A stretch of DNA of 64,000 nt from Callorhinchus milii (GCF_018977255.1 NW_024704742.1:23190001-23254000); one strand, 5' to 3'. Shown: positions 39,322 through 64,000, counted from the stretch's first letter. Notes: generated from the sequence alone by a model not told the origin. Program-made: numbers and translations.

Positions 39322-42128
39322 CGGAGTCCTGTAGCTTAGTGGTTAGAGCACTCACCTTGCAAGCGAGAGTACCTTGGTTTGATTTCGAGTTAGGCAAGCT
39401 TTCTTACTCCACACGCCTCTGTTTACCTAGCAATAAGTAGAACATAAGAATATAAGAACATAAGAATTAGGAGCAGGAGTAGGCCATTCGGCCCCTCTAG
39501 CCTGCCCCGCCATTCAATAAGATCATGGCTGATCTATTCTGACTCCACCTATCCGCCTTATCCCCATATCCCTTAATCCCTTTATCCACAAGAAATCTAT
39601 CAATCTCAGTCTTGAATATGTTCAAGGACTGAGCATCTACAGCCCTTTGGGGTAGAGAATTCCCTAAATTCACTATTCTCTGAGTGAAGAAATTTTTCCT
39701 CAACTCAGTGCGAAAGGGCTTACCCCTAATTTTAAGACTGTGACCCCTGGTTATAGTTTTTCCAACCAGGGGAAAAAGTCTCCCATTATCTATTCTGTCA
39801 TGCCGCTTAATAATCTTATAGGTTTCTATAAGATCACCTCTCATTCTTCTATATTCTAGAGAATATAGGCCTAAATTTCTCAACCTATCCTCATAACTCA
39901 TCCCCCTCATCCCAGGTACCAACCTGATGAATCTACAGTGTTCTCCCTCCAAGGCGAGTATATCCTTTCTTAAATAAAGAGACCAAAACTGACACAATAC
40001 TCTGGGTGCGGTCTCACCAGATCCCTATACAGTTGCAGCAATATTTCCCTACTCTTATATTCTAACCCTTTTGTAACAAATGCCAACATACCGTTAGCCT
40101 TCCTAATTGCTTGCTGTAGCTGCAAACTAACTTTTTGTGACTGGTGAACAAGGACACCCAAGTCCCTCTGAACGCTAACACTATCTTGTTTCTCCCCTTC
40201 TATAAAATAATCTGCTCTACTGTTTTTGCCACCTAGGTGCATGACCTCACATTTCCCTGCATTATACTTCATCTGCCACCTATTTGCCCACTCACCTAGC
40301 CAATCTATATCTTGTTGCATTTTTTTTATGTCATTCTCGGTGTTTACTCTCCCTCCTAGTTTAGTGTCATCCGTGAATTTGGATATATTAAGTTTGATGT
40401 CCTCATCTAGATCGTTGATGTAGATTGTAAATAGTTGAGGCCCAAGCAATGATCCTTGTGGCACTCTACTAGTCACATCCCGCCAATCTGAGAAGGACCC
40501 ATTTATCCCTACTCTTTGTTTTCTTCCCGTTAGCTATTCTTCAGTCCATGCTAATATATTCCCCTTAATTCCATGGGCCCTAACCTTGTGGATCAACCTT
40601 TTATGCGGCACCTTATCAAATGCCTTTTGGAAATCTAAATACACTACATCCACTGATTTCTCCTCTATCTAATCTACTTGATATGTCCTCAAAAACATCT
40701 AAAAGATTTGTTAAGCATGACTTTCCTTTTGTAAAGCCATGTTGACTCTGTCTAATCATATTGTGATCCTCTAAGTATCCCACTACGACATCCTTAATTA
40801 AGGATTCTAGAATTTTCCCTACCACCGATGTCAGACTAACTGGTCTATAGTTCCCCATCTTTTCTCTCCCAACCTTCTTAAATAGTGGTGTGACGTTTGT
40901 GATCTTCCAATTAATGGGAACCGTTCCAGAATCCGAAGAATTTTGGATCAGACACAAGGTCTCCACTATCTCATGAGCTACCTCTTTTAAAATCCTAGGA
41001 TGCAAACCATCAGGTCCAGGGGACTTGTCACTTTTTAATGCCAACAATTTCCCTAGCACCAATTCTTTGCTAATGTAAATTTCTCTACGTTGCTCCCTAT
41101 CATTAGCCCTTTGGTTCATCTCTATTTCTGGTAAACTTCTTGTGCTTTCTAACATGAAGACAGAAGCAAAGTATTTATTTAGGGACTTTGCCATATCCTT
41201 ATCCCCCATTATAATTCCTCCTGTCTTTGCCTATAATGGACCCACATTTATTTTTGCTAGCCTGTTCCTCTTAATGTATTTATAAAAACTCTTACAATCT
41301 GTCTTAATGTTCCTAGCTAGCTTGCCCTCATAATCCATTTTCTCACTCCTAATGAGCTTTTTGGTTTTCCTTTGTTGGTCCCTAAAACACTCTCAGTCCT
41401 CGGGTTTGCTACTCCTTTTGGCAGTTTTATAGGTCTTTTCTTTTAGTTTTATACTTTCTCTAACTGTTCTAGTTCGCCACGGATGAACTGCTTTCCCTGC
41501 GGTACTCTTATTCCTCAAGGGAATATGTGACCGCTGAGAATTTTGCACTACATCTTTAAACGTTTGCCACTGTTGGTCTATTGTCATATCCATTAATCTA
41601 ATTCCCCAGTCTATTTTAGCTAATTCTTCCCTCATACCTGCAAAGTTAGCTTTATTTAAATTTAAGACCCTTGCTTCGGATTTGACTATATCGCTCTCTA
41701 ACTTAACACTAAATTCTATCGTGTTATGATCACTCTGCCCTAGAGTAGCCTTAATATCTATATTACCGACTAGCCCTGTTTTGTTACACAAAACAAGGTC
41801 TAGGATGGCCTGTCCCCCAGTTGGTTCCTCACCATACTGTTCCAGAAAGCTATCTCTCATACACTCTATAAACTGTAGTAGGAACCCGGTTGTTAGTCGA
41901 TTGGTGGATTGCTTTTCCAGGGTTAATAATTCCTTCAAAAAAATAATAATCATTTGGTCACTCAATCCACGACTGTTTATGAGACACTGCTGTGAGCAAT
42001 TGGTTGCCACGTTTCAACCACAAAATATACAGTCAATTCACTTTACAATATATTCTGTGAAGTACTATGAGACGCTTAGAAGACGCAAAAAAACGCTATA
42101 TCAGATGCAAGGAATATTATTATTATAT
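39322..42128 (+). mobile_element. tRNA-derived SINE split by a CR1 insertion (head 39322-39440, remainder 41877-42128)
   Basis: The halves join to match the uninterrupted copies at 23622 and 49681. Confidence 0.85.
39441..41876 (-). mobile_element. 5'-truncated CR1 LINE (~2.4 kb), decayed ORF2 from endonuclease end through RT to 3' tail
   Basis: Four frameshifted ORFs: [60 protein letters not shown]; aacataag-type terminal repeats; AGTAG at both junctions. Confidence 0.95.
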
Positions 42129-50974: not shown

Positions 50975-51107
50975 AAGTTTACCTTCACATTTAGGTGTCA
51001 GCCTGGCTCCGTTGGTAGCACTCTGAGTCAGATGCTTACGGGTTTCAGTCTCACGTCGGGACTTTGAGCTCACAGTCTAGGCTGACACTACAATCCAACG
51101 CTCAGGT

Positions 51108-51459
51108 GTACAGCCAGTGTAACACAGAGAGATGTACAGCCAGTGTAACACAGAGACTGTACAGCCAGAGTAACACAGAGACTGTACAGCCAGAGTAACA
51201 CAGAGAGATGTACAGCCAGTGTAACACAGAGAGATGTACAGCCAGTGTAACACAGAGAGATGTACAGCCAGTGTAACACAGAGAGATGTACAGCCAGTGT
51301 AACACAGAGACTGTACAGCCAGTGTAACACAGAGAGATGTACAGCCAGTGTAACACAGAGAGATGTACAGCCAGTGTAACACAGAGAGATGTACAGCCAG
51401 GGTAACACAGAGACTGTACAGCCAGTGTAACACAGAGAGATGTACAGCCAGTGTAACAC
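51108..51459. repeat. Minisatellite, 25/26-bp unit, about 14 copies
   Basis: gtacagccagtgtaacacagagagat / gtacagccagtgtaacacagagact. Confidence 0.97.
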
Positions 51460-51917
51460 CAAGCCACTTTGAATAGCACCATGGGATCTTTAACGTCCAC
51501 CTGAACAGGCAGATGGGCCTTCGGTTTAACGTGTCGACCGAAAGACGGCACCTCTGACAATGCAGCACCACGCCTCCCTTCCCCCAGCACTGCAATGGAG
51601 TGTCAGTTTAGACTATGTCCCAACATGCGGTTTGGACCCACAACCTTCTGACTCAGAGGCAGGATCGCTCCCACTGTGCCAGGCTGACGCATGATTACTG
51701 TGTAATTACTGTAAAGCACTTTGAGACACTTCAATATTACAGACGCTGTTTGAAATGTCAGGATCATTACTATTATTATGATTTAAAAGGGACGGACAAT
51801 GCATCCTCTCAATCTGTACACTGAGCATCAGTGCGACATACACTTGCTGCCTGTCACCCACTTTCCATATTATTTTAGGCATTTGTTTCCTGTGCTGCAT
51901 TACTTGAGTTCTGTATT

Positions 51918-53355
51918 CAACAACAAAAACAACAACTTGCACTTATTAGCGATTGAGTAATCCAGGCGGGAGATGGCAAATGCATGCACGAGGGTTTCGG
52001 CCTCATTTGGGGTAAGGTACGGTCGGAGGTGGGCAATGTGGCGGAGGTGGAAGAAAGCGGTCCTGGTCAGGGCCCATATGTGGGGGAGGAGGGACAGCTG
52101 GGGATCAAATCGGACGCCTAGATTATGCACTGGTTTGGTAAGTGTGAGGGACGGGCCAGGAAGGTTGAGGAATTCAGTCCGCAGGAGTGAAGATGTTGGA
52201 ATATGGCTTCCGTCTTGTCCACATTCAGCTGCCGGAGGTTTGCACTCATCCAGGCCCTGATATCTGACAGAACATCGGCAGACCTGGAGTTTGTACTGGA
52301 GGAGGCAAAGTAGATTTGTGTGTCATCACAAACATGTGGAAGTTTACCCTGTGTTTGCGGATGACATCGCTCAGAGGGAGCATATAGATACTGAAAAGAA
52401 GAGGGCCAAGGATGGAGCCCTGGGGTATCCCGCAGGCGACCAGGCGGGAGGAGAAACCATTTGCCGAGATGAGATGGAGATGGTTGGTTAAGTAGGACTC
52501 GAACCATGTGAGTGTAGTCTCACTAAGGTGGATCAGGGAGGAGATGCGGTGGAGGAGGATGTTGTGGTCGACTATGTCGAACATGCAGAGAGATCCAGGA
52601 GGACCAGGAGGCAGAGGGAGCCCTGGTCATAGATAGAGAGAATGTCGTTTGTGACTTTGACAAGCGCTGTCTCTGTGCTGTGGGCAGAGTGAAACCAGGC
52701 TGCAGGGGCTCGAGGAAGGAGAGGTGTGACCGAAGTTGACCTGCAACAATGCAGTGCAGGACATTGGCAAGGAAGGGTAGGTTGGAAATGGGATGATAGT
52801 GTGAGAGATTAGAGGGTTCAAGGGTGTTTTTTTTGTGGAGGGGTGTGACAACAGTGGTTTTCGGGGGGAGTGGAACAGTACCTGAAGAGAGAGACTGGTT
52901 GACCATGTCGGCCAGCAGTGGGGAGAGGAGGGGGAGTTGAGTGACCAGCAGCTGGGTGGGGAGGGGGTCGAGACAGCAGGTGGTGAACTTCATGCGGGTG
53001 ATTGTGGTTGAGACGGAGGAGGGAGAAATGGGGGCAAAGGAGTGTAAGGAAAAAAAATAATAAATTGGTCTCTTCAATCACGACTGTCTGTGGGACACTG
53101 CTGTGCGCAATTGGCTGCCGCATTTCGCCCACAAAATATACAGTCAATTCACTTCACAGTATATTCTGTGAAGCGCTTTGAGACGTCTCGAAGACGTGAT
53201 AAGGCGCTATATCAAATGCAAGGATTAGTATTAAGAGGGGGGAGTGGCAGGAGCCGTGACAGAGGGAGAAGGTGGTATGGATGGTCTGGGTGGATTGGAA
53301 GGTGACATGGGCGGAGAAGTCGATGCAGTCAAGTGGATGTTTTCAATCTTCGAAG
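51918..53355 (-). mobile_element. L2 LINE RT fragment with a + strand SINE 3' part inserted at ~53050-53230
   Basis: ORFs [54 protein letters not shown]. Confidence 0.92.
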
Positions 53356-59601: not shown

Positions 59602-59715
59602 GACGACACAGCACAAGAGAGAGACATGCAGGTCGCAGTAACCGGCAAGCTCAGAAAGCACTTTAACCCAACGGCAAAGCAGAGCAATACTGCGGCAAAT
59701 GTCAGCGTGATTATG
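59602..59715 (+). CDS. DCLK2: DCLK2 exon, start of C-terminal tail
   Basis: gtctgcag|GAC...ATG|gtaagt; 114 nt; DDTAQERDMQVAVTGKLRKHFNPTAKQSNTAANVSVIM. Confidence 0.95.
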
Positions 59716-61746
59716 GTAAGTGGGACACACACACGCGCACACTCCACACACTCGAGAGTGCCTCACATGACTCGAGTAGGCTAAAGCTTACCACCTCAGC
59801 TCCAACTGGAGTAGGAACTTCCCTGAGAGTGCCCCTAGAGTGAGGTTTACCGTCTAGCTGTAGGAGGGAGCTGCCATACTGGCTCAGGATAGGGAACGGT
59901 AACCAATAGCAACCCGCCTCACTTTCTCCGGGAGTGTAAGAGGCTTGTCTTCACCCTCAGGCAGACAGATTGAGACTGTGGCAACATGTCCTGTCGTCAG
60001 TGCTACCTCAGGCTGACGTTCTGGGCACTGTTACCTGTAGCGACTTTAATGGTGAGAGGGAGTCCCATTAGAATACCAGCAGGCCTGATCAGCCACATCA
60101 CAGCCAACTGACCTTTGAGATCCATCAATTCATATTTTACCTCTACAAAGGGTAAAGTTTTAAAGAGGTGGAGGGGATTTTGTGGGGAGGACAGGTCCTT
60201 GGTGTATATTAAAGGAGGGAGACTCAAACCTGCAGTGGAACACTGACCAGTCTCGTTTCCCCCCTCCCCCCCACCCCCACGCCTACTTTTGGTTTGTTGA
60301 TCTACGAGCATCTAAAACTCAACCACTGCAACCAGGGTTCACCACGGATGGGAACTGGAAGCTGGTGACCCTGACCTGTGGGAATTATGCTCTGGTGAGA
60401 TACACTTCTGGGCGTATGGGAGCTGAGTTCCCTCCGGTTGTGTAACAAACTTTGAATATATTATTGATTGTTCTGCTGGTGAATTTCCATTACCAGAACG
60501 AACAAGCAGCACATACGCATATACACACAGAGAAGGAAAACAATTGCTATTGATAAGAGAAAAAAATTATTAAATCCACTGTATTTTTTTCCCCTCGCAA
60601 ATTTTCTCCCTCCTTTACCATTCTAAATTTATGTGACTCTATATTCCCTCTACCAGGGTTTGGTTCCAAAGACAACCTCAGCTACTTTGTCCATTTTCAT
60701 GAACCTTGACATTTGACCACATTGGGCATCACCGAGGATACTTTCCTGCTCGATGTTCACACATTACATACCTCGAGCAAGGCTTGCTAGGCAGCAATGG
60801 AAAGATTGGCTGATTCTCCCTTTCCTTACCCAGGACAATAAGGCCAGTTTCAGGGGCCGCAATGCTGGTATGACAAAGATCAGCTACTCCAGCATAGCTC
60901 GGATGTCAAAAACTGGCAAATTAGGATCGCACTTTCCAGAATTCTGCCCGGTTTTAAATTTTAAGACAACCCTGTCTTACATGTTAAGGGTAGATGGAAT
61001 TTCGGGTATCCAATCACTAACCAGAGGTGCCCACTGGCAGGACGCATGGGGGTGGGATGGGGGGAGGTGTGGTTTTGGGTGGGTGGGGGAGAGAGTTGTG
61101 TGAGACCAAGATTGGCTTCTGCTGTGATCTTCCTTCCCCCAGTGGCACTCACTGTCACGGCTCAGGGGTGAATAGAGACCGCTTGGGTTAGGTACGGTGT
61201 AGGCCACTAGTGGGTGGAGACAGATCCCAATATGAGTCAGAACAAGAGAAAATTGGATTTTTTTTTGCAAAAGACAAATGTCAATAGCAATTAGATTAAA
61301 TTTTTCATATTGAAAGGCTTGAATTGTTTAACCCACAAATCTCACATGTTCCCTCCCTCACCACATTCCTAATATTTTCTTTCATTCTCCTGACTGTTGG
61401 TTGAAGATCCATCTGGTTATACAGGGACTTACGCCTCCTCGCCCTTCCCCACCCCACTCCCCTTGCCCCCAGCTGTCAGCACCTGATACAGCATAGTGTA
61501 ATGGATTGAGAGCCAAAATCAGCTCCACTTCCCCTGATGTGGAATTTGACCACATTGGGCATCATACACACTATGCCATACCCAGCAGCTGCCTGACACC
61601 TGGCAACATATCTGACCTTCACGGGCAACCCTGAGTCCTTCAGCTCCCCAGGTGCCTCCTCAGCTGGGGCCCCCAGTGGCCCACGGTATCTCACAGAGAC
61701 CAATCACATATCTCACCATGACTAAGTCTTGCACCTCAAAGAAAAA

Positions 61747-61830
61747 CAAGCTGGTAACTCACAGAGACCAAGCTGGTAACTCACAGAGACCAAGCTGGTA
61801 ACTCACAGAGACCAAGCTTGTAACTCAGAC
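61747..61830. repeat. Tandem repeat, 22-bp unit, about 3.8 copies
   Basis: caagctggtaactcacagagac repeated. Confidence 0.95.
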
Positions 61831-62108
61831 GCCTGACCTCCTTCCGCCTCCCCTCCACCCCCATCCCTAGTCAGTAATAGTACAGAGCAGTTTCATAGTT
61901 TCATAAACTGTAGTGACGGGATGTGCCGGTGTCTGCTCTATTTCCCATGTAATGTCCCATCCTCAACTTGACTCGGGCCAGGTTGGGAAGGGCTGAGTGT
62001 GTGGAATGGCCAAGCAGGATGGTCTCAGTGAATCTCTAACCTACAGCAGTTCTTCCGAATCTGGCCTGACATCTGTTTTGTTTGTGTGCATTTCATGTCT
62101 TTCGACAG

Positions 62109-62120
62109 TTTGAAGTGTAA
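62109..62120 (+). CDS. DCLK2: Candidate alternative stop-containing exon of DCLK2 (FEV*)
   Basis: U/C-rich tract then ttcgacag|TTT GAA GTG TAA; phase 0 fits the preceding exon; repeat-poor sequence follows. Confidence 0.5.
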   Translation, partial: FEV

Positions 62121-63793
62121 AGAGGGAGAGGTTAAAGCTCGATTCCTCGTCCTGAGAAACTGGAAAAACCCTGAAGGACACCATGGTATAGAATGCAGTG
62201 CTAAAACCGGGGAAGCTGGTCACTAACTCCCAGCCCATTCTAAATCTGCATGGCCCATTGCCTTGTGCCTCACAGCTCTTACCTACGCTTTGCCAGTTGG
62301 CTGGACTTCACACGGCGTGGACCAGACTGATGCCCCTGTGTAACCGGAGAGTGCAGAGCTTTCTTATCCCTTGTCTAGATGCTGGATTAAACTCATTTTC
62401 CCCCCACCCACCTTCCCCATCCCTCCCAACCTGCTCAAGATTCAAAGCACCACAAAAACCCTGGACTTCTGGACATTTGAAAGTCTACCGCTCGATAGAT
62501 CTCAGGTGGACTTTCAATCGGAAAGGCCAAAGTTGTGGAAACAGATTCCATGTCTGAACAAGGGCAAAACGTGGTTTAGGACAAGTCGTAGGAGAAATGT
62601 AACATTTCACAAATTAATGGAAGAAAATCCAGACCTTCCCAATAGGAATCCAGCCTGAAATAGTGTGGAATAGGTAGAATGGTCCTGAAGTTCCATCTAG
62701 TGGTAGAAATCAGGAATTACAGCTGTCAAAACTTAGAAGCTTTTGTTTGCTTTCCTTCAGGCTGTGCCTCCTTTTTTTTTAAAAAAAGTTTTATTTATAG
62801 CTCTATTTATTGGCCTTGCATCATGTATTTTCTTCATGTAAGCGCTTGGTTCTCTACGATGTGAGCATGTGCGCACAGTGATGAATTTATTATGGACTGT
62901 GAATTTTTTTTGTAATTATGGTGATGTCTGTATTGAGCTTATCGAAAGCTAACCGAATGTACTCAGCCCTGGTTAAAGGGCAGTTCTAGAGAACCAAGCA
63001 TTTTTCATGTTACAAGGAGGTGTTCTTTAGTGGAGTCCATTAATACTGTTCGGCAACATAGGTTGGAAAACACAAAAGATGAGAAATTCCACCTGGGTCT
63101 AGGTTTACTCTTATTTCATTAGCATTTCATTGTGGGGAATTTAGCAAATTCTTAAATACAGCTTTTAATTTTAAGACATTTTTTCTGTAAGTTATTTTAA
63201 GAACTATAGAGGGATATCTTCAAAGTTGAGACTGAGTTCAACAATTCTCCGAATTCTGGACACTCCAAAATGTTAAGAGTATAGAGTCAATCTTGTTCCT
63301 GGTGGAATTTCTGGTAGTCTAATAACAGGCAGAGATGACATATTCCGGGGAGGATAGTGTTGGGTAAAGAGAACTTCCTTCACTTTCTCGTTAAATGTTT
63401 TAAGTACAGTTGTCTGCTTTCAAAATGAAAAGGGACAAATATTCTTAATTTTGTGCAAAAAATCAGCGTAAAAACTACAGTAACTACATAAAAGAGGAGA
63501 GTGACAGAATTCAGATGAGCTCCGCTCCAGGTCCACTGTCTTTGCTGGATAGTGTTGAGTTTTGATGCATTCAGTGAAATGTCTGGATAGGAATGTGTAA
63601 GACACGCAGACAGTAATGTTAAACCGTTCACAGTGCTACCTGTAAACTGATTGAAGAGTTGCCCGCAGTCACGGTGGTAGTATTTTTTAATATAAATCTG
63701 TATAAACATGTATTAGAAGTATGACTAGTCTCTATCCCTGTGCTTCTTCCCTCCCGTCTCTGGCCTGCATCTGCATTGCTTCTCTCTGAGTAG

Positions 63794-63806
63794 ATCCAAG
63801 GCAATG
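63794..63806 (+). CDS. DCLK2: 13-nt frameshifting microexon of DCLK2 (IQGN+G)
   Basis: ctgcattgcttctctctgagtag|ATCCAAGGCAATG|gtatgt; UGC motifs upstream, TACTAAC and TGCATG downstream. Confidence 0.75.
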
Positions 63807-64000
63807 GTATGTACTAACTGCATTGGCGCTGCTTTGATCTGCTGCACGCATAAGGACTCTGCTGCTTCCTTTTTAAAACAATTTTCAACGTGGGAAAAGG
63901 AGAACTGATTTGTTCAAGACTGACTGAGTTCTCCTGCATGCTTTCCAACCCGATTAGTTCCGTGTTCACCCTGAATATTTTTAACCCAAAGTAGTCGAAG

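Follow-up and report, generated by a model that had tools for sequence, protein, structure and literature searches.

As described in a study on DCLK1 (PMC10602587, eLife 2023), the C-terminal tail of the DCLK proteins is an autoinhibitory switch of the kinase. In DCLK1, the VSVI segment occupies the active site as an ATP mimic, the last exon begins with Thr687/688, and Lys692 is a pseudosubstrate contact, a position that is taken by His in the splice form DCLK1.1, whose tail is more dynamic (PMC10602587). DCLK1.1 and DCLK1.2 differ by exon 16, a cassette that follows the VSVI exon, precedes the last exon and alters the reading frame of the tail, as the DCLK2 unit described here would do. Another related case is ARL6 (BBS3L), for which PMC4317164 describes an alternatively included 13-nt microexon, located towards the 3' end, that causes a frame shift and thereby a changed C-terminus. 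This microexon is like that of DCLK2 in length, 3' position and frame shift, but the gene is unrelated and inclusion yields a full different C-terminus rather than a stub.

For DCLK2 itself, a human 13-nt micro-exon is listed at chr4:151175577-151175590 on the plus strand (Li et al. 2015, Genome Res, PMC4317164, Supplemental File 1, row 177), in a file of 310 novel micro-exons that were detected in RNA-seq of GTEx brain, muscle and nerve, and according to Supplemental File 2 of the same paper it is located 55 kb downstream of a 51-nt micro-exon of DCLK2. Gene and length are as in the Callorhinchus unit, and the human entry was published as coordinates without sequence. Based on the extent of the gene and on the 55-kb distance, we take the human micro-exon to lie in the last intron of the gene. 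The supplementary code of MicroExonator (PMC7821500) has Dclk2 among its plotted genes, with the exon not specified. Dclk2 was absent from the supplementary files examined of PMC12868881, of the nSR100 mouse-mutant study PMC4387716 (all but one file) and of PMC5630039 (11 of 27 files), and a search of the full-text literature gave nothing relevant that joins DCLK2 with 'microexon' or Srrm4.

Here, we describe a unit of 13 nt from the last DCLK2 intron of Callorhinchus milii, which is very likely the orthologue of the 13-nt alternative cassette exon found in this intron in other vertebrates. Judged from its coding sequence, it is an unannotated member of an already known DCLK2 microexon type, the new part being its presence in a chimaera.

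Organization of the 3' end of DCLK2

The analysed window is a stretch of 64,000 nt of the Callorhinchus milii genome (GCF_018977255.1 NW_024704742.1:23190001-23254000), and positions are counted from its first letter, also for sites beyond its end (window scale). The initial annotation had named the gene DCLK2, and a protein-level match of the exon encoding VSVIM agrees with this, since two UniRef Callorhinchus milii DCLK2 records match the exon with 100% identity, with shark and ray DCLK2 coming next (11 of the 12 candidates in this search had E <= 0.001). Two coding features precede the unit:

59602..59715, plus strand: next-to-last coding exon of DCLK2; its end reads ...NVSVIM in phase 0 (reading frame, identity, and contig joints leaving at 59715)
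62109..62120, plus strand: TTT GAA GTG TAA, read as FEV*, with which the coding part of an alternative terminal exon begins (sequence, translation and contig joint)

The VSVIM exon ends at 59715 with ...GTCAGCGTGATTATG (codons GTC AGC GTG ATT ATG), followed by gtaagt. The last exon lies outside the window and starts at 65675 (L002 2675), 1675 bases past the window end, where ...ttttattttccag is followed by TCC ACG GCT CTC GAT AAA GAA... In the canonical frame this exon encodes STALDKESQIF..., 74 residues in total, and then TGA. The last intron thus measures 5,959 nt, and the 13-nt unit at 63794-63806 is located inside it, between the VSVIM exon (59715) and the xTALDK last exon (65675).

The C-termini of the five UniRef Callorhinchus DCLK2 models (P0001, P0002 and P0182-P0184) either run past the donor into intron sequence at window positions 59716-59790 (VSGTHTRAHSTHSR..., for example VSGTHTRAHS...), or continue in an odd exon, ILQFIFYLYKG. 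The canonical STALDK tail, the FEV tail and the microexon tail were found in none of these five records, and because none has the STALDK tail although the contigs described below show its junction, the 3' end of Callorhinchus DCLK2 looks mis-annotated.

Several other elements were noticed in the DCLK2 introns. A short interspersed repeat at 64595-64864 on the window scale (L006 5195-5464), in the last intron, has contig depths that rise to about 37,000 across all four runs, and is either highly expressed or highly repeated. Long open frames on the minus strand at 39500-42000 and 52100-53150 are reverse-transcriptase-like (...FTDDTKLGG..., ...LLFSIYMLPL...) and look like retroelement fragments, and a tandem repeat at 51077-51607, which is open in several minus-strand frames (...CYTGCTSLCVTLAVHLSVLHWLY...), looks like an intronic minisatellite.

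Transcript contigs and an alternative terminal exon

Transcript data consisted of the assembled contigs of four runs, presumed to be RNA, over positions 59401-65960. Since assembled contigs lose rare variants, they can show the presence of a joint and cannot show its absence. The joint from 59715 to 65675, which skips the 13-nt unit, was found in run X2 with a depth of 51.5. No 13 letters were present between the two sides of this joint in the assembled contigs, from which rare variants are lost, and the same limit applies to joints into or out of 63794-63806, of which none was found in the four runs.

A second joint with GT..AG borders links 59715 to 62109 (L006 315 to 2709), with a depth of 363 in X1 and 18 in X2, and leads to the exon encoding FEV*. 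Downstream of 62109, the X1 contigs are contiguous at a depth of 125-319, compared to 5.6-13 in the intron before it, and the 3' UTR of the FEV* exon continues at least to the window end. The transcript 3' of this joint spans at least 3.8 kb of contiguous sequence (L006 2709-6560), and overlaps both the microexon and the canonical last exon. Part of this long transcribed stretch is an X1 contig of 1,170 nt (L006 3781-4950, depth 168) that crosses the microexon and its two splice sites without being spliced.

Annotated FEV* tails were found in 19 records from sharks, rays and teleosts, and tails of the general form F..V occur in 31 of the 380 DCLK2 proteins that we gathered. The form FDLTV is present in 10 records (those checked by name being from lizards, crocodilians and chicken) and FGLAV in coelacanth. 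The hydrophobic-x-Val end of the F..V tails could, as we speculate, be a PDZ-type ligand.

A 13-nt unit with microexon splice signals

The unit and its immediate splice signals are as follows:

63780..63793, plus strand: CU-rich tract TTCTCTCT, followed by the tandem acceptors GAG TAG (sequence reading)
63792-93, plus strand: acceptor AG of the microexon, in the context ...ttctctctgagtag (sequence)
63794..63806, plus strand: candidate 13-nt microexon ATCCAAGGCAATG, encoding Ile-Gln-Gly-Asn and providing one base to the following codon (sequence, translation, pattern match and orthologous tails)
63807..63812, plus strand: donor (5' splice site) GTATGT of the microexon (sequence)

Use of the distal TAG of the tandem acceptors gives the 13-nt exon, and use of the proximal GAG, 3 nt upstream, would place an in-frame TAG right after VSVIM. 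We infer that the distal TAG is the acceptor in use, a choice that is based on the 9-residue tails of other species.

Units of the form AG-N13-GTRNGN occur 22 times on the plus strand of the window and twice in the 5,959-nt last intron, so an AG...GT pair that happens to be 13 nt apart in an intron or 3' UTR, with a fortuitous likeness to a microexon, has to be considered, and inclusion junctions among the assembled contigs, which would speak against such a coincidence, were not found. However, at least 70% upstream pyrimidines were found for only 2 of the 22 units, and the DCLK2 unit alone also has at least three TGC in its upstream region. The splice signals of the DCLK2 unit are therefore unusual for the window, and by themselves not decisive. 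The coding pattern is more specific: AG-NTN-CAR-GGN-MAY-G-GT has a single match in the 64-kb window, at 63794-63806, and none in 100 shuffles, with an expected number of chance matches to the tail pattern of about 2e-4 per intron by our own arithmetic, a pattern that was written after the window and the gar tail were known and is thus partly post hoc. Together with the tails of 16 other species discussed below, which agree with the predicted IQGN and VHGSR* in length and stop, this makes a chance origin very improbable. It is the coding match to other species, rather than the splice signals, that decides the identity of the microexon.

Regulatory motifs around the unit

Three groups of motifs flank the unit:

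63766..63779, plus strand: cluster of three TGC (UGC) at 63766, 63772 and 63777, i.e. -28, -22 and -17 from the exon (sequence)
63812..63818, plus strand: TACTAAC (with an ACUAAY core), starting 6 nt inside the intron that follows the unit (single plus-strand copy in the window)
63935..63940, plus strand: TGCATG, RBFOX-type motif, 129 nt 3' of the donor (sequence)

These motifs, as well as the unit itself (ag, ATCCAAGGCAATG, gtatgt), had been pointed out in the initial annotation, and all were found in the sequence at the positions given there. A UGC near the 3' splice site marks SRRM4-dependent microexons, and the combination of a very short exon with UGC is typical for the SRRM3/4 (eMIC) class. 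With its 13 nt and three TGC at -28 to -15, the DCLK2 unit has the sequence features by which SRRM3/4 (eMIC) microexons are recognized, and a fourth TGC is located upstream at 63741. Of the 4,202 AG dinucleotides in the window, 76 (1.8%) have at least three TGC within the preceding 40 nt, so the UGC cluster is enriched over the window background. The Callorhinchus genome contains two loci with an SRRM_C domain (PF15230), scoring 52 and 51 bits (cut-off 27).

The two downstream motifs are less informative. The first base of TACTAAC is the last base of the donor hexamer GTATGT, and ACTAAY occurs 22 times in the 64 kb (0.34 per kb), so a lone nearby copy is unremarkable. Exons regulated by QKI combine the ACUAAY core with a UAAY half-site no more than about 20 nt away, and no such half-site was found in the 20 nt on either side of ACUAAC (63813-18). 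In exons enhanced by RBFOX, a (U)GCAUG that is conserved between species is located up to a few hundred nt 3' of the exon. GCATG occurs 42 times in the 64 kb (0.66 per kb), and since a copy within 300 nt downstream is expected by chance in about 18% of cases, the TGCATG alone is weak evidence.

PTBP1 binding immediately upstream of alternative micro-exons has been described by Li et al. (PMC4317164), and the tract TTCTCTCT next to the acceptor is compatible with PTBP1-type repression. Further downstream, GCATG and CACTAAC occur at L002 2559-2585 (65559-65585 on the window scale), about 90-115 nt 5' of the last-exon acceptor and before a very long pyrimidine tract; these may serve the shared 3' splice site as a distant branch point and as a site for regulators.

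Predicted reading of the inclusion isoform

When the microexon is skipped, VSVIM joins the last exon in frame, and translation gives the 74-residue tail STALDKES... Inclusion is predicted to yield VSVIM-IQGN-VHGSR*, a stub of 9 residues instead of 74. In this frame the leftover G and the first bases TC of the last exon form a Val codon, followed by HGSR, and then by a TAA that is derived from the Asp-Lys codons GAT AAA. The initial annotation had proposed that the regulatory tail is replaced, since inclusion adds IQGN and brings the last exon into another frame; the added residues and the shift agree with our translation, but what replaces the tail is a 9-residue stub that stops after five codons of the last exon, and not a long alternative tail.

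A length that is not a multiple of three and a frame that stops early are also what is expected from a poison exon, whose inclusion destroys the mRNA by nonsense-mediated decay so that no protein is made, and Li et al. mention that non-symmetric micro-exons may act via decay (PMC4317164). The new stop is located at L002 2689-2691, within the last exon and 3' of the final exon junction. By the established rule, a stop codon downstream of the last exon junction should not trigger nonsense-mediated decay. Because of this position of the stop, the decay reading was dismissed, and an mRNA that includes the microexon is expected to be productive and not a target of decay. In addition, the stub is conserved as protein in 16 species, and we regard a poison exon as extremely improbable.

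The microexon tail in other vertebrates

For comparison, 380 DCLK2 proteins were gathered from cluster listings and one tail-directed search. This comparison used annotated proteins only, so that a 13-nt insert in other species is implied by four residues and one base. A microexon-type tail directly after VSVIM was found in 19 of the 380 records, representing 16 bony-vertebrate species. The gar tail reads VSVIM-LQGHEHGSR (XP_015200177.1 / UniRef W5MQ78). LQGNEHSSR is present in zebrafish NP_001139260.1 and NP_001139261.1 (RefSeq isoforms 3 and 4) and X9, and in Seriola and Odontesthes, and Clinocottus has LQGNDEHSSR. The tail VQGNEHSSR was found in chicken (XP_004941037.1), four other birds, three turtles, Crocodylus porosus, Anolis sagrei and Zootoca, and the tail of Xenopus laevis X3 is a variant, VHANEHSS. 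The remaining 361 records consisted of 241 with the canonical xTALDK tail, the 31 with F..V mentioned above, 70 with other tails, and 19 without a VSVIM-type motif, in which the tail could not be read. In the best 120 of 1,062 relatives, only canonical xTALDK and some other tails were seen and the microexon tail in none, which is due to the short-tail isoforms being contained within 90% clusters.

The Callorhinchus unit shares with the short-tail DCLK2 proteins of bony vertebrates the gene, the position after VSVIM, the build of four plus five residues, [ILV]QG[HN]-xH[GS]SR, and the stop. At the nucleotide level it is 13 nt long, is flanked by AG and GT, and encodes [ILV]-Q-G-[HN] plus one base, after which x-H-[GS]-S-R and a TAA within the Asp-Lys codons are read from the last exon. 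The predicted Callorhinchus tail is identical to that of gar in 6 of 9 residues, in addition to having the same length and stop, and differs in having Ile and Val where bony vertebrates have Leu/Val and Glu. The tail VSVIM-VQGHE that had been suggested for mammals in the initial annotation is close to the annotated VQGNE of sauropsids and LQGHE of gar. Its proposal that the switch is ancestral to jawed vertebrates fits the data, since orthologues in ray-finned fishes, sauropsids and a chimaera support an origin of the microexon at or before the jawed-vertebrate ancestor.

Among the matches listed, the microexon tail occurred in none of 60 elasmobranch DCLK2 records (two of the clusters being covered by 15 of 17 and 15 of 39 members), and 12 of these listed records have the FEV* tail. 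This, together with the lack of the microexon tail in the five Callorhinchus models, would fit a relic, i.e. a unit that descends from the DCLK2 microexon and is no longer spliced in chimaeras or cartilaginous fishes, with the FEV* exon providing the short tail; the FEV* junction is also the best supported one in X1, and the contig in that run is unspliced through the unit. However, chimaeras and bony vertebrates separated more than 400 million years ago, and an unused 13-nt unit is unlikely to retain its splice dinucleotides, length, open IQGN reading, polypyrimidine tract with UGC cluster, and downstream TAA for that long. Moreover, microexons of such a small size are often overlooked by annotation pipelines, as stated in the MicroExonator paper (PMC7821500). 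We therefore consider a relic unlikely, and prefer an orthologous cassette exon that is probably still in use.

Related cassettes in DCLK2 and DCLK1

The DCLK1 exon-16 type of cassette has a phase 2 junction, puts the last exon into the +1 frame and gives a long alternative tail, whereas the 13-nt DCLK2 unit leads to the +2 frame and a stop after 5 codons. An assignment of the unit to the exon-16 type was excluded, since its one leftover base gives the +2 frame. A cassette of that kind is seen in DCLK2 of Narcine bancroftii (P0014, P0015 and P0168), where VSVM-SGRSHTNDQNSKSPFPYMST-QLSIKK... carries an insertion, after which the last exon continues in its +1 reading (QLSIKKVRYSV...). From its frame and position, the Narcine SGRSHTNDQNSKSPFPYMST cassette is the DCLK2 counterpart of the DCLK1 exon-16 switch. 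The MQQ... or SGRSH... exon of elasmobranch DCLK2 was not found in the last intron of Callorhinchus DCLK2.

The last intron of Callorhinchus DCLK1 (25,817 nt) contains no 13-nt unit of the xQGx type, and a reading as 'FEV*' in this intron was dismissed because it is without an acceptor AG. A filter that asked for a YAG acceptor, at least 70% pyrimidines, a GTRAG donor, no stop, and a length of 4 to 28 nt leaving one base was passed by a single, well-signalled unit, again a 13-nt sequence at C4:72419945-72419957 on the minus strand, in which CTCAGTCATCTCA is preceded by ttatttag and followed by gtaagt, and which would give VSVIA-LSHL-NHRS*. This unit may be the unannotated counterpart suggested in a 2026 preprint, and hints at a device that would be older than the duplication of DCLK1 and DCLK2.

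Discussion

The switch that we propose for Callorhinchus DCLK2 would operate at the last intron: skipping of the microexon would lead to the long tail, and inclusion would add IQGN and the shifted last exon VHGSR*, from an mRNA that is predicted to be productive. The short form would keep the VSVI ATP mimic and lose the whole distal tail. Counted from VSVI, the positions of Thr688 and Lys692 would become Gln and His, with His present in all 19 orthologous tails. Because the ATP mimic would be kept while the Thr688 and Lys692 positions and the distal tail are lost, the short-tail kinase is expected to have an altered, and probably weaker, autoinhibition, by extrapolation from DCLK1. Inclusion is probably enriched in neurons, possibly aided by the UGC cluster of the SRRM3/4 type.

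A wider scenario, which we put forward only tentatively and regard as rather doubtful, is that a three-way tail switch of DCLK2, between the long autoinhibitory tail, the FEV stub and the 9-residue stub, was fixed in the jawed-vertebrate ancestor, with the microexon frame being kept by synonymous-site constraint on Ala-Leu-Asp-Lys, where GCT CTC GAT AAA is read as ...TCT CGA TAA in the shifted frame.

The finding opens no new question, as annotations of the exon exist for many bony vertebrates, and it is recorded for human. It adds a further example of the dual-coding last exon seen in the DCLK family, which the 2026 preprint discusses. A tail that is cut just after the ATP-mimic segment would be a compact route to a differently regulated kinase in particular cells, and the chimaera orthologue dates this device to the base of the jawed vertebrates.
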